Under the pieces are notes generated by a model. The model worked only from the letters and a program-made list of their open reading frames with translations, was not told the DNA's origin and did no database searches. A stretch of 64,000 nt of DNA from Botryllus schlosseri (lineage: Eukaryota), in assembly GCA_051294905.1 (NCBI GenBank), contig CM119372.1, positions 20,586,001 through 20,650,000 of the forward strand. Direction: 5' to 3'. Positions 544-14,656 of this stretch are shown piece after piece; the stretch's first letter is position 1; each line of letters starts with the position of its first letter. The position numbers and the translations under genes are program-made.

Positions 544-3500
544 AGTAGTTAGTATGATCGGTCGCGAATCGCCATTGTGGCTTATGGGCCCGCTGGCACG
601 GTGCCTCGAAACTCGTGTTGGCACGGTGACCCTTTTGACCCCCCCTTCCGCTCGCACGGTGCCATTGTGTCTTATGGGGCCTCTCACACGGTAACCCTTT
701 TCGGTATAGGGATCGCTCACACGGTGCCTCGAAAACTGGTGGTGACATGGTTACCTTTTCAGGTATAGGCATCTCTCACACGGTGACTCTTCTAGGTATA
801 GCCATCTCTCTCACGGTGCCTCGAAAACTCGTGTTGGCGGGTCGTACTTGTAGGTATGGGCATCTCTCACATGGTGACTCTTAAGGTGTAGGTTGTGTTG
901 ATGAAGTGGTGTTGAATATCAAGTATAGTAAACAGCGACGCCATTACTTATTATGTCTATCCCGAATTATTATATATGACCGATTCCAGGTAATCCCAAC
1001 GTTTGCGGTGAATGCGACTTCGATATATCGTTATTCTTATGGGTGCGGCGATGATTCGTACTTTCGTTGATAGAATGCTAGCGGCATGTCGTACTTTCAC
1101 CAAAAAGGGTGTGAAATAGTTTGCTAAATCTAGGAATCAGTCGCTTGGTAATTAGTTTACCACGGAACCGGCGTAGACGGTGATACCAACAATAGCCGCG
1201 TTCACATATTAACACTCCAAATAGGTGTGAAATAGTTTGCAAACCCTGCGTTCGCTGACAAGATAATGTCTCAGACATACGCGACTTGATGTTACAGGCA
1301 TATCGATCGCTCACGCGGTGAAATTTTCGTAAGCAGTTTGGCACAGAGCTTGATTTCACTCGTACGATTTAATAAGTAACGAATAACAGACCGCCAGTGT
1401 CGGTAACTTGAATAGCGACAAATTGTCACTTATTTCCGCTCTAACCCTAATCCTTTGTGAAGTGAACGCTTATTCAAAAGGGTGTGATATCATTTTAAAA
1501 TCCTACGACACTCACAGGGTAATGCTTCAGACAAAGCGATCCCTCATGCCCGCTCACAAGGTAATATTTCCGTAATTAGTTTGTCACAGAGTCGTCGCAG
1601 ACGGTGATTCGTAAACCAACAATTTGACACTTTCTGGTATGGTCGCTATATGTTTTTGACACTTTGTCCGTGTTTGACTTTAGTTGTATGATAAGAATCA
1701 TGCGAATATTCAAGCAATGTATCAATTGAATGAAATGAAACTTACTACACAGCTCAAGTTGATTCGTATTTGAATGTGTTGATCCGGTACAATTCTAATT
1801 AATTTGAGAAATCTTTTTAACGTGATCTTTTGATTCGACCGTAACCTGAATATTACTGACGCCGACTTTCAGTCACATTGAATTATTCACACATTCCACG
1901 CCGCTGTTTTAACAGTTATAGAATCAATACCAACTATCTCTAACCCGATAATATTCAATCATTTTGGTAATTTACCAACTTTAAATCCATTCGCGGATGT
2001 ACTAAAGGTAAATCCAAATAATCCAAAATGAAATATTTTGACTTTGGCGTAGTGTGAATTGAGAAAGGATTGACAAACATGACTACCAACTTTCCCACAG
2101 CCCCATATTGATATTATACGCACATTGATTTGAAAAAAAGTAATGGAACATTGCAACTCTATTCGCGATCCGACTTTTCGTTTGTCAAAGCGACATTTTA
2201 ACATCTTACCATACTCAAAAGAATTATTTACAACATTAACAAGTGTTCAAAATCTAGTTTTCACTTACTTGATTATATCACTGCAACTCACGAATTTGAA
2301 TTAATTCATCCTGGTTGTATTCGTATGATCGGTCTTTTTTATTCAATTGTAAAGGTCGTTACTATTCTGAAGACAAAGTAAGTTATTTACTAATCGACAC
2401 ATAAATGACTTGACATAAACATATTATATTTTGAGTATACGAGATTTGAATGTCTGAAAAATAACTGAGAAATAATTTATCACAATAAAATACGTATATT
2501 ACAGCGTAAAAGATGTTTGAATGTCAGCAACTCTGTACGGTTATAGTTACTACCACTAATTTACCCGACCAACTCGTCATGATCATTCCTGAAATCAACA
2601 CAAATATGACCACTGACTTGAGTTAACCACAAAACAGCATCAAGTTTTAAATCCACTCGTAGCTTACGGATTATTTGAATGCTGGTTATGTTTTGTTGTA
2701 ATTGAGTTAACGAAATAGTATTACGTCTCGACATCTTACCATCTTACCATATTCAAAGAATCAACCACGAAACATTGTCAAGTAAATCCGTTAACCGACC
2801 AACTCAAACAGTATCAATACGAAAAACAACCAAACATACACGAATCCATACAATCGCTAAAACCTAAAATCCATAGCAAACTCGGTTGTATTCATATCCC
2901 AACGCATCTTTTTTATTCAACTTGAAAAGTTGTCACTATTCTGTAAGATAGAGGAATTACTACGCGATATATTCTGCAAGACAAACTAATTATTACTCGG
3001 TATATTTTGTAAGACAAAGTAAATACTACTCGGTGTGCGGTTTGGGATTAACATAATATGTTTGAGTAAACGAGATTTGTCAGTCTAACCGTCGTAGTTG
3101 AGAATTCATTTCTTACAATCGAACGCCGGTGCTACATTGAAAGTTATCATGTTGTAAACATCCTTATTGACACATTGATTTGACATATGTAATAGTTGAT
3201 CATGACTTGATTATTAAATTATTTGCGTTAATTAGATCTGCATTGTGGTAAATGTTATGACAGCAACAAACTTTTCAGAAACATTGTTATTAACATATTG
3301 ATTTGTAAAACTATGCGTGTCTGAAATGTTTTTGATTTGAAAGATATTCCGTGTTTGTACAAATCACTTTACGTATTACGGATATCAGAAAATATTTTTA
3401 CAAATGCAGTTGTTTCCAGTAACCAACACTAAAGATGGCACAACAATTTCGTTATCCAAACATTGAACACCCGATGCAAAATGCTTTATTGGTCAAATTC

Positions 3501-6500
3501 GTGACGGCTATAATTGAAACGACTACGTATAGAGTCAGTATATTACAATTTCATGTCGTTACTATTGAATCCAGCAATTGATACAATTTGTTGTCGGAGT
3601 TGTGACAGTGCATTGAAACATACACAACTTACAGAGTGTGAAAATATCACTTTGGGTATCGAGTACCGTTTGAAGCGTGCGATCAATACATAATTCCGTT
3701 CGCACTCTCTAAGACGTTGTGAAGTCTACAGATTTACACTTCAAGACTTTGATCAACACATATGCAATTTGGAATATCTTTACTGGATGCATCCTATTCG
3801 ACTAGACTTGAGTAATACACAAAACTCATAGCATTAACAAAATCGCAATAGGCGCTACACTGAAATCTACGAAATGTTTTTCTATTGTTGTTAGTGATCA
3901 TAAATTATCATTTGAATAAGTAATTGTAATCATAAAACCAAACTTGCGAAAGTCATTACCATAACAAAAGAATATTGTAGGTTGCTTGCTAAATGTATGC
4001 CGGAAATATTTGTAGAACGCTCACGACCAAAGAAATTGGAAATTTTCCCATTGTCATTCGTCAAAGTAAATGTCGTCACAATAATCAGTCACTAAAAGAC
4101 CATATACTTGTATGTGATTGAATCGCCGACAATTAACTCGGTAAATCAAACCCCTGAGAAATTTCACTCAGTCATTGGATAGGAAACAGCGTCGCTTAAT
4201 CGGCGTGAGTCGTTTTTTTCTAAATACTAATCATATCTGTCCAGCCAAGAACAATTTTCACTCACTTGGGTAACAAAACCAGTGTCCAATATCAATACAA
4301 GATATTTTCGTCACACAAAAATAATCAACTTCACTCGATATTCCCGTACTACGAAACTGTACAAAGGTTACATGCTTTTGTGTGACATGGAATTAATACC
4401 GATCGAAGTAACCGTATTGGAGATAACTTTTAAACAAACACACTCTACGTGGTTAACATTCTCGTCGATTCTATTGCGATTAATGTATACTTCATGTGAT
4501 CTGGATTCATTTCGATATGGCTGAACATTCAACCTCGACGGATACGAATTGTCACACACTCAAGTAATATCATACCAAATAGTTATTTACAAGACACAGA
4601 AAATTTGTTTTGGTCGTTTCGATTTTATTACTGGAGATACTCATCACTTCGCTTAATACAATCTAGATTTAAACTCCATCGAACCTTTGGTGTCTATCGT
4701 TTTGCTGGATACGAATTATGTAAGTCTAAGAGTACACAATTTTCACTATCTTGGGTTATGAACTCAGTGTGTTAGCGATCATTCAATATTTTGTAGTATC
4801 AACTAGCTACCTCGTAGGATACGAATGATCATCCTCACAACTCTTACAAAAGTACGAAGGATATTTACATCACACAAAGTAATCGACTTTACTCGATATC
4901 CTCACACTACGAAACTGAATGATTGGTTTGACTCTACAAACTGTTCTGATGTCACAAGAACTTTTTCATACGAATGGTTACGTATCTAAATATTCAAATA
5001 ATCCAACACACGACTATAGTACTTACAGAAATATCATAGTTCTTGTAACAAAGTTGTATAAGTATAATGTTTATCGTAAGTCCTACATAGCCATGATATC
5101 CGTCCGAGTTTGACTTTTAGAAAACATTATACCGACTTCGCGACATCTTTCAAAATTAAAACCACGGTGACTGCTTCAGAGACCTACCAATGATATTGCA
5201 GTAATACAGTTACTTTCACAAAAGAGTATGTATTCGACTTACTTACCACAAATCTAACGCACAAAACAATCTACTTTACTAGCGAGAAGCGCCGAGCCTC
5301 ACATCCAAACAACTAGAAAGTTGAACTATATTAAAAAACGTCGCTAACCTTTGTGCACCAGCTGTAAATCACACAAGCAACATGTTTCAAGATTCTGGTT
5401 ATTGAAAAACGTGAAAGTGTTTCTCCTGCGCCAAGTCGTTATGTTGACGAAAGCGTATATTGTAATACCATGATCGATTTTTATTCGTTGGTCACAAACT
5501 GTCACTACTCTAAATAATTCTTTTTCACTCAAACACAAAAGCATACTTGTCGCCAATCGTTTTCATCAAGCACGAGTTCAAGAAACCTGCTACGACATGA
5601 ATTGTTATTTTGATGTTGTGTAAATAGGTAATAATTTATTTTAGTAACACTACATCAACATCATCGAGTTGTGCGAATAGATTTACATGTGGTTTTAATC
5701 GAAGTACACAGCACGGTCTAATGTAGATTCATCTCTATTGTACAGCAACTCGGTAATCGAAATGCATTAACATTTAAACAACGATCTTGGTTCGTCACGC
5801 GAAAAATATCTTTACCGTCGCAACACTCTGATACTCTGCACAAGATGTGTAAATCCTTTTCACACTCATAATAATACACTAACGGGATACCGATGTCAAG
5901 CAACAACGTTTAACAACATCACTGACACTGAACATACGATACCTACCCAAGTAAAAATATCATTTTCACCAGGAGGTCAGTCGTTACTTGTGTACAATTA
6001 CCATTTTCCCTTGGGAGTTTAGCGTTACCCGAGTAACAAAACCATTTTCACTTGGAAATATATTTTTTCCCTGGGTAACAAACCCTTTTTCACTTGGAAA
6101 TCTATTTTTGCCCTGGATAACAAACCTTTTTCACTTGGAAATATATTTTTTCTCTTGGTAACAAACCTTTTTCACTTGGAAATATATTTTTTCTCTGGGT
6201 AACAAACCTTTTTCACTTGGGAATATATTTTTTTCCCCGATCAACAAACCTTTTTCACTTGGAAATATATTTTTTCCCCGAGCAACAAACCATTTTCACT
6301 GAGCAACAAACCCTTTTCTCCCCAGGCAACAAACCCTTTTCGTTTGGAAAACTATCATTTACCTGAGTACCAATACCATTTTCGTTTTGAAAACTGACAA
6401 CTACAACGATCAATTTGATATTTTTTGTATATTGTTACAGCAGACAGTGACAAAATATACACCAACAACGACTCCGATACATTTGTGTAATCAAATATTC

Positions 6501-14000: not shown

Positions 14001-14656
14001 GCGGCTATTGTTGGTATCACCGTCTACGCCGGTTCCGTGGTAAACTAATTACCAAGCGACTGATTCCTAGATTTAGCAAACTATTTCACACCCTTTTTGG
14101 TGAAAGTACGACATGCCGCTAGCATTCTATCAACGAAAGTACGAATCATCGCCGCACCCATAAGAATAACGATATATCGAAGTCGCATTCACCGCAAACG
14201 TTGGGATTACCTGGAATCGGTCATATATAATAATTCGGGATAGACATAATAAGTAATGGCGTCGCTGTTTACTATACTTGATATTCAACACCACTTCATC
14301 AACACAACCTACACCTTAAGAGTCACCATGTGAGAGATGCCCATACCTACAAGTACGACCCGCCAACACGAGTTTTCGAGGCACCGTGAGAGAGATGGCT
14401 ATACCTAGAAGAGTCACCGTGTGAGAGATGCCTATACCTGAAAAGGTAACCATGTCACCACCAGTTTTCGAGGCACCGTGTGAGCGATCCCTATACCGAA
14501 AAGGGTTACCGTGTGAGAGGCCCCATAAGACACAATGGCACCGTGCGAGCGGAAGGGGGGGTCAAAAGGGTCACCGTGCCAACACGAGTTTCGAGGCACC
14601 GTGCCAGCGGGCCCATAAGCCACAATGGCGATTCGCGACCGATCATACTAACTACT
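8061..14656 (-). repeat. Right arm of element A
   Basis: Reverse complement of 544-7139. Confidence 0.95.

Follow-up and report, generated by a model that had tools for sequence, protein, structure and literature searches.

We analysed a 64,000-nucleotide stretch of the Botryllus schlosseri genome (assembly GCA_051294905.1, contig CM119372.1, positions 20,586,001 to 20,650,000 of the forward strand; hereafter the window), which holds two giant palindromic elements, elements 1 and 2, and most of a Polinton/Maverick (Table 1). Element 1 is made almost entirely of two inverted arms around a short single-copy loop. It is probably a member of an abundant family of helper-dependent Polinton/Maverick derivatives, in which the arms are re-templated from one another and a gene in the loop appears to be under selection. 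A repeat search of the window placed the arm boundaries at 543-7139 and 8061-14657 with 921 nt between them, and a base-by-base comparison found one difference between the arms (A at 6406, G at the partner position 8794), thereby bearing out the 14-kb palindrome with 6,596-nt arms that had been proposed from the letters alone (the sequence-only reading). The arms make up 13,192 of the 14,113 bp (93%). Most of their sequence is unique, tandem arrays being limited to two short ones (92 nt x 2.2 and 41 nt x 6.5). No RNA family of the Rfam type was found in element 1 at E <= 0.1, and none of the 85 open reading frames (ORFs) of at least 55 aa in the two palindromic elements reached the Pfam cut-off.

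Table 1. Features of the window; positions are counted from its first letter.
Feature	Position	Strand	Remarks
Palindromic element 1	544-14656 (14,113 bp)	none	repeat search and base-by-base arm comparison
Left arm of element 1	544-7139 (6,596 nt)	+	no ORF of at least 55 aa reaching the Pfam cut-off
Right arm of element 1	8061-14656	-	reverse complement of the left arm except for one mismatch
Loop of element 1	7140-8060 (921 nt)	+	sole single-copy part; holds blocks invariant in 30 copies
6-bp target-site duplication CACACG of element 1	538-543 (left), 14657-14662 (right)		backed by paralogous empty sites
21-nt tip of element 1	544-564; mirror 14636-14656	+ (544-564)	identical to the Polinton tip at 48793
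20-nt subterminal repeat of element 1, four copies	703-872; mirror 14328-14497	+ (703-872)	
A-rich 41-nt tandem repeats, inner arm	6033-6383	+	mirrored in the right arm; also in element 2
Loop gene of element 1	7680-7960	+	frameshifted near 7772-7775
Host hAT-like miniature inverted-repeat transposable element (MITE)	82-543 (left half), 14663-14974 (right half)	+ (left half)	8-bp duplication CTTTAGTC at 74-81 and 14975-14982
Palindromic element 2	36045-47900 (11,856 bp)		arms 5,474 nt with 1 mismatch; loop 41519-42426 (908 nt)
6-bp duplication AACGGG of element 2	36039-36044, 47901-47906		
Loop gene of element 2	42045-42320	+	intact, 91 aa, protein P0002
Neighbouring Polinton/Maverick	48793-64000, runs to 64377 (377 nt past the window; 15,585 bp)	none	
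Polinton integrase, rve core and chromodomain	53771-54850	-	PF00665 E 4e-16, PF00385 E 1e-8
Polinton packaging-type ATPase	55550-56161	-	weak AAA / Pox_A32-like matches
Protein-primed polymerase-like gene	57156-60186	-	split in this copy into frames of 597 aa and 465 aa

The ends of element 1 read AGTAGT...ACTACT, with CACACG on either side. As the sequence-only reading had also claimed, this duplication lies inside a hAT MITE whose halves rejoin: in all five other copies of the MITE that we fetched the site is empty, and the flanks of the element align there to adjacent DNA, overlapping by exactly 6 bp. Copies of the host MITE are also very numerous: all 40 scored matches are 91-100% identical, out of 4,285 first-look candidates. 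Chance origin and assembly fold-back are excluded.

Across the 495.5-Mb genome, the loop of element 1 gave 40 scored full-length matches at 92-100% identity, and all 30 further loci fetched have a loop bordered directly by inverted arms, at identical boundaries. Over 1,500 nt, the arms of 23 of these loci are 99.6% or more identical, a figure that drops to 94% and 84% in the most diverged ones. The full-length structure was read for five palindromic copies, namely elements 1 and 2 and three more of 13.1, 13.6 and 13.8 kb, flanked by AACGCA, CCCACG and GATGTA, respectively. All five carry distinct 6-bp duplications, settling in the affirmative whether independent insertions of the palindrome exist, and the GCAGGC that flanks the neighbouring Polinton brings to six the insertions with duplications of this length. 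Every copy read has AGTAGT...ACTACT ends.

A motif derived from six tips occurs genome-wide 767 times in forward and 756 times in reverse orientation (reversed control, 0 + 0), amounting to some 760 pairs of matching ends, and a motif back-translated from the 91-aa loop protein described below occurs 452 + 382 = 834 times (control, 0 + 0). On contig C1, manual pairing yielded 30 same-tip plus/minus pairs less than 20 kb apart, most of them separated by 13.2-14.8 kb; the loop-gene motif lies inside 20 of these pairs and a polymerase gene inside one, two are short, and seven hold neither motif nor polymerase among the exact matches listed. We put the family at roughly 800 copies, mostly of 12-14 kb, with loops of 0.65-1 kb and arms of 5.5-6.6 kb; by rough extrapolation (800 x 13 kb), it may occupy about 2% of the 495-Mb genome.

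Near-perfect palindromes are a known artefact of long-read libraries, and a chimeric read or a mis-joined element with short terminal inverted repeats (TIRs) might conceivably be assembled as a fold-back of this kind. The flanks of element 1, however, are not mirrored and rejoin into one MITE with a 6-bp duplication. Moreover, there are hundreds of copies on many contigs, each with flanks of its own, diverged copies keep the arm/loop boundaries, and parts of the loop and arms are present in the sequencing runs of nine studies. An assembly artefact is refuted at the level of the family, and we give this explanation practically no chance.

Two further arrangements of family members were seen on contig C1. 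A 3.3-kb relative (L046, G000:C1:19317100-19320600, positions 106-3407) shares the tips, is flanked by the duplication TTCGTA and has short TIRs of 367 nt; its interior corresponds to one element 1 arm (about 340-2140) in a single orientation, making it a non-palindromic deletion derivative. At G000:C1:16768420-16810257, three same-tip end pairs of 41.8, 28.7 and 14.7 kb are nested by their coordinates, which suggests that family members have repeatedly inserted into one another.

Some 34 kb from element 1 lies the neighbouring Polinton, with TIRs of 712 nt that differ by one mismatch. The sequence-only reading had matched the ends of element 1 to the first 21 nt of this Polinton. The match is indeed exact, and the 21-nt tip occurs three times in the window (at both ends of element 1 and at the Polinton start, 48793), with no occurrence expected by chance; the likeness does not stop at 21 nt, as about 240 nt align at 75% identity. 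In addition, a 20-nt subterminal repeat is present in four copies at each end of element 1 and in three at the left end of the Polinton (48950-49085), at an equal distance from the tip; all of its 11 matches lie in element 1 or at this end of the Polinton, where chance would give 0.02. Other palindromic copies bear a 24-nt tip that is exactly the Polinton's. The resemblance is limited to the first 240-520 nt or so of the element 1 arm, the remainder being unrelated.

The enzymes of the Polinton have no counterpart in the palindromic elements: a Pfam scan of ORFs of at least 55 aa found no recognisable polymerase, integrase or capsid gene in them, and within this comparison an rve integrase was seen only in the neighbour. 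Having no polymerase or integrase of its own, element 1 would depend on a helper. In the ESM Atlas, the N-terminal ORF of the Polinton's polymerase-like gene gives only a lead to DNA_pol_B_2 (score 0.93), and a PDB search with the C-terminal piece gave nothing useful. Genome-wide, 73 relatives of this polymerase were scored, many with open frames of 1,130-1,300 aa; with at least 73 polymerase copies versus about 800 satellites, the enzyme-less derivative outnumbers its presumed helpers. For vertebrate Mavericks, TIRs of 46-1,447 bp with (AGT)2-type ends have been reported, along with perfect duplications of 6 bp (PMC8097293), and the arms of element 1, about four times as long as the longest of these, do exceed the usual Polinton TIR, as had been claimed.

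These shared ends bear on a different origin, in which the family would be a cut-and-paste element of the foldback kind that owes its movement to a conventional transposase and its Polinton-like tips to chance or end capture. Its architecture does match that of the classic foldback elements, Drosophila FB and sea-urchin TU, and no Polinton genes are found inside the elements. Yet a tip of 21-24 nt identical to that of an element with rve integrase and protein-primed DNA polymerase B (pPolB) in the same window, a further 240 nt or so in common with an equally spaced subterminal repeat, 6-bp duplications in six of six insertions read, (AGT)2 ends as reported for Mavericks (PMC8097293) and arms of mostly unique sequence, not of tandem subrepeats, together render a foldback transposon barely credible.

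Two side observations concern the Polinton itself. A polymerase ORF 83 kb downstream (G000:C2:20727749-20729539) is 100% identical to the split copy in the window, reflecting either a segmental duplication or a recent duplicate of this same defective Polinton. An inverted repeat of 277 nt (window 60577-61155; 88% identity, 25-nt spacer), which the Polinton carries between its polymerase-like gene and an ORF at 62881-63534, could be a small foldback element or a MITE.

The sequence-only reading had described element 1 as non-coding, a description that fails for the family, as its loop carries a 91-aa gene, though element 1's own version is frameshifted. The 91-aa ORF, with conserved start and stop, is the main stretch over which the element 1 loop aligns to two other loop types (L038 and L039), and it is intact in 27 of the 33 loops examined. 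Between loop types, synonymous divergence (dS) is 1.0-1.4 and non-synonymous divergence (dN) about 0.25, a ratio of about 0.2 (Fisher p = 4e-8; 3e-5 for L038 vs L039), and differences at codon positions 1/2/3 number 26/16/41. The 150 scored genomic matches to the protein, a set that favours the highest scores, all span its full length (89-100% identity), and 145 of them are free of stops. Judged by this pattern of substitution, the loop gene is under purifying selection across the family. A longer ORF of 168 aa in element 1 (7454-7960) was rejected as a gene, its frame being broken in 29 of 29 other loops; it is a by-product of the frameshift in the loop gene.

Public collections hold a handful of homologues of 90-93 aa, down to 62% identity, on contigs of 0.7-1.1 kb. 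In the ESM Atlas, the best score was 0.79, with no lead to function. Summed weak matches to repeat proteins (E 7e-8 to 2e-6 over 6-8 repeats), with a weak likeness to single WD40 blades, offer a lead only, and assignment to the WD40 or beta-propeller proteins was not supported, neither Pfam nor a PDB profile search returning a match. A highly repetitive predicted protein of 1,806 aa in a public collection (P0005), perhaps just a translated repeat, has a repeat unit 41% identical to residues 22-50 of the loop protein. Upstream of the loop gene lies a 57-nt block (7553-7609) that does not vary among 30 copies and includes a short palindrome, GGTGAC ... GTCACC, around TTTCGAAA; a 42-nt core of the block has 63 genomic matches with up to two mismatches, and the block could be a promoter or a protein-binding site. 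The loop-gene motif also occurs as inverted pairs 0.7 and 5.6 kb apart (G000:C1:12460609-12461334 and C1:36861626-36867215), and in some variants the gene may be located in the repeated part instead of the loop.

Transcription was assessed by comparing reads from two raw single-cell RNA runs of the same organism with the left arm and loop of element 2, strands being assigned by the general convention of the read-mapping tool. The runs gave 340 and 315 reads, respectively, with a strand bias. In the loop bins over and after the gene, sense depth was about 1.2-1.7 versus 0.2-0.7 for antisense in both runs, while a pile of reads in the inner arm was strongly strand-biased (27 vs 0.75 and 12 vs 0.3). 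Given the symmetry of the arms, this pile corresponds to plus-strand positions 42714-43149, which lie 3' of the gene and immediately ahead of the A-rich 41-nt repeats. The sparse reads are consistent with transcription of the loop gene, and their distribution fits an mRNA that begins in the loop and extends 0.7-0.9 kb into one arm. Among indexed sequencing runs, none listed as RNA matched; contigs from two runs (X7 and X19) cover arms and loop, and, being possibly DNA, were not counted as evidence of expression.

Reads at low depth were found on both arm strands, and a transcript across both arms would form a 6-kb duplex, so that the family might be imagined to persist mainly as a host source of hairpin RNA that silences Polintons, with mobility secondary. 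We hold this to be very improbable: the likeness to Polintons is confined to the first 240-520 nt, leaving most of such a duplex without a target, and about 800 dispersed copies with fresh duplications look parasitic, not like a host locus.

The history of the arms was followed by comparing the inner 1,400 nt of both arms at 30 loci. In 26 of the 30 elements, the nearest relative of an arm was its own partner, the exceptions being ties within a very young burst and one hybrid, and the median distance to other arms was 8-17%. Subfamilies differ by 9-17% while the arms within a copy stay almost identical; likewise, a tree of the arms contains no left-arm or right-arm clade, and the two arms of an element fall together in 28 of 30 cases. 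Larger changes are mirrored as well. A subfamily-specific 2.4-kb arm block gave 40 hits, which resolve into 18 inverted pairs and four singles. In copies with an outer arm 97-98% like that of element 1, the likeness falls to 73-80% in the inner arms and the loops differ (976 and 653 nt), and these mosaic copies are still symmetric, with arms 99.8-99.9% identical. These mirrored blocks and breakpoints imply that mutations, insertions and recombination in one arm regularly reach both. Taken together, the comparisons suggest that one arm is repeatedly re-templated from the other, most likely by way of hairpin or panhandle intermediates of protein-primed replication. Separately, the 2.4-kb block was considered as a nested foreign transposon and rejected, as 36 of its 40 hits form inverted pairs inside other palindromic copies.

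We therefore arrive at a scheme in which a Polinton's integrase and protein-primed polymerase would act in trans on the shared ends. During strand-displacement replication, the displaced strand would zip into a long hairpin, and arm identity would be reset as one arm is copied or repaired from the other by snap-back synthesis or panhandle repair; repair and snap-back of this type are known for the inverted ends of adenovirus. The arm information inherited would then amount to half an element's worth. The five full-length copies span 11.9-14.1 kb though much of their arm sequence is unrelated, and the helper measures 15.6 kb; as these lengths lie near that of the helper, the arms may be largely stuffer that holds the element near the helper's packaging size. 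The loop protein, for its part, would serve the satellite's own propagation. A bolder version, in which the elements are true polintovirus satellites that replicate extrachromosomally by protein priming, rebuild their arms through hairpins, use them as stuffer for the capsid and need the 91-aa protein to exploit the helper, is possible and, in our estimation, rather doubtful.

Of the mechanism put forward in the sequence-only reading, a helper-dependent replicon mobilised by Polintons and akin to snap-back defective genomes, a good part is retained. The elements are mobile, end like Polintons, duplicate 6 bp and have no polymerase or integrase of their own, with the action in trans being the presumptive part; and the snap-back analogy suits both the architecture and the lock-step evolution of the arms. 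Element 1 is not, however, a simple snap-back copy of its helper, a possibility that was rejected because only arm positions 1-520 align to the neighbouring Polinton (the one Polinton lineage of the genome with which the arm was compared) and the arm is unrelated beyond about 240-520 nt.

Several observations weigh against the scheme of helper-driven replication with arm resetting. First, the identity of the arms is equally explicable by arm-to-arm gene conversion on the chromosome, in which case replication chemistry would play no part and the palindrome would be uninformative about Polinton replication. Near-identical arms in copies that differ from one another are expected under conversion too, and element 1, whose nearest sampled relatives are 0.7-2% away while its own arms differ by 0.015%, is compatible with it. 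One copy (L035+L036, G000:C14:14842606-14862605, element at 3343-17173) has arms only 84-92% alike within an intact 6-bp duplication; the inner part of its left arm lies 0.6% from one young subfamily and that of its right arm 5% from a second. Either recombination between lineages produced this copy, or it is old and has undergone partial conversion from another element, and its intact duplication implies that unequal arms are tolerated and not always reset. Conversion is nonetheless countered by the arms' drift in place after insertion, their identity ranging from 100% to 94% with one copy at 84%; by a 4-kb difference between the arms of another copy (C1:15703969-15721605, about 6.3 vs 10.4 kb by coordinates, not inspected base by base), which was neither copied across nor removed; and by exactly mirrored kilobase blocks and breakpoints, which fit whole-arm copying better than short tracts. 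On balance, we favour resetting at the time of replication over conversion in place, which we regard as unlikely.

The remaining points on the adverse side are of several kinds. The putative mobilisation in trans is something we infer from just the shared ends and the length of the duplication, and the adjacent Polinton has its polymerase gene split into two frames and is, for that reason, probably not an active helper. An intact-looking insertion without long arms exists (the 3.3-kb L046 with its 367-nt TIRs), and the 30 loci on which the arm comparison draws, being the best loop matches, are a non-random sample. Regarding the loop gene, its protein has no match in Pfam, PHROGs or PDB by sequence or profile and no counterpart in the neighbouring Polinton in a profile search of all 1,287 ORFs of the window, and its AlphaFold models are poor (predicted local distance difference test scores, pLDDT, of 37.8 and 45.8). 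Finally, RNA reads cover the loop to a depth of no more than about 1-2, from 3-4% of each run, and, having been accepted at 90% identity or more, are not traceable to particular copies.

To our knowledge, the replication of Polintons/Mavericks has been modelled but never demonstrated directly. About 800 helper-dependent copies whose arms keep a record of whether one is templated by the other would constitute a natural experiment on its mechanism and, were the elements indeed extrachromosomal satellites, they would provide the first natural read-out of Polinton replication and a new kind of satellite. That a derivative without enzymes still keeps one small, apparently selected gene makes the loop gene a candidate for a new protein of satellite-helper interaction. 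In practical terms, near-perfect palindromes of 13 kb are hazards for assembly and genome stability. The present analysis contributes the gene in the loop, the reads from RNA, the match to a helper tip close by and the estimates of copy number.

The window also contains two smaller inverted repeats, each of which is probably a small transposon: one at 17326-17917 (245-nt arms, 94% identity, 102-nt spacer) and one at 33285-34421 (183-nt arms, 88%, 771-nt spacer).

Among known systems, foldback transposons such as Drosophila FB and sea-urchin TU resemble the palindromic elements in that nearly the whole element consists of inverted arms around a short middle; some of their members have a gene in that middle, and they reach high copy numbers. 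They lack the Polinton-type ends and the 6-bp duplication, and the present arms are mostly unique and far longer than usual. FB-type elements have arms of tandem subrepeats and duplicate 9 bp, and element 1, with its 6-bp duplication and arms bearing only two short arrays, was rejected as one of them. The snap-back defective genomes of adenovirus and the derivatives of the yeast killer plasmid pGKL1 are likewise palindromes with the same origin at both ends and dependent on a helper. In incomplete adenovirus genomes and pGKL1 hairpins, the inverted ends are kept identical by replication, and the helper's terminal protein and polymerase are required. Unlike these, the palindromic elements, known here from chromosomal copies, are integrated, inherited, split into subfamilies and equipped with a seemingly selected gene of their own. 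Sex-chromosome palindromes share the concerted evolution of long inverted arms around a unique spacer; those, however, are immobile, lack target-site duplications and are not scattered in hundreds of copies.

Transpovirons and virophage-like elements are linear, have inverted ends and few genes of their own, lack morphogenetic genes and rely on another virus-like element, in all of which they are similar; they encode helicases or Zn-ribbon proteins and have short TIRs (PMC5499653), whereas the family described here resides in an animal genome, is palindromic almost throughout and carries an orphan gene of 91 aa. With autonomous Polintons/Mavericks, the palindromic elements have in common the (AGT)2...(ACT)2 tips, the 6-bp duplication and inverted ends, as well as the tip and subterminal repeats found in the 15.6-kb neighbour with its rve, ATPase and pPolB-like genes. 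They differ from them in having no recognisable polymerase, integrase, protease or capsid gene, in arms of 5.5-6.6 kb against the TIRs of 46-1,447 bp reported for vertebrate Mavericks (PMC8097293), and in a private 91-aa gene with none like it in the neighbouring Polinton. In the searchable literature, with Repbase and Dfam outside the comparison, this architecture is undescribed under palindromic or foldback Polintons or Mavericks, or under those of tunicates or ascidians, and the wording of a non-autonomous Polinton/Maverick appears there in a single paper, on Tlr1. As in such a non-autonomous derivative, the termini and subterminal sequence are common to an autonomous element of the same genome: the palindromic family behaves as a non-autonomous Polinton would, with the architecture of a foldback element or of a snap-back defective genome.

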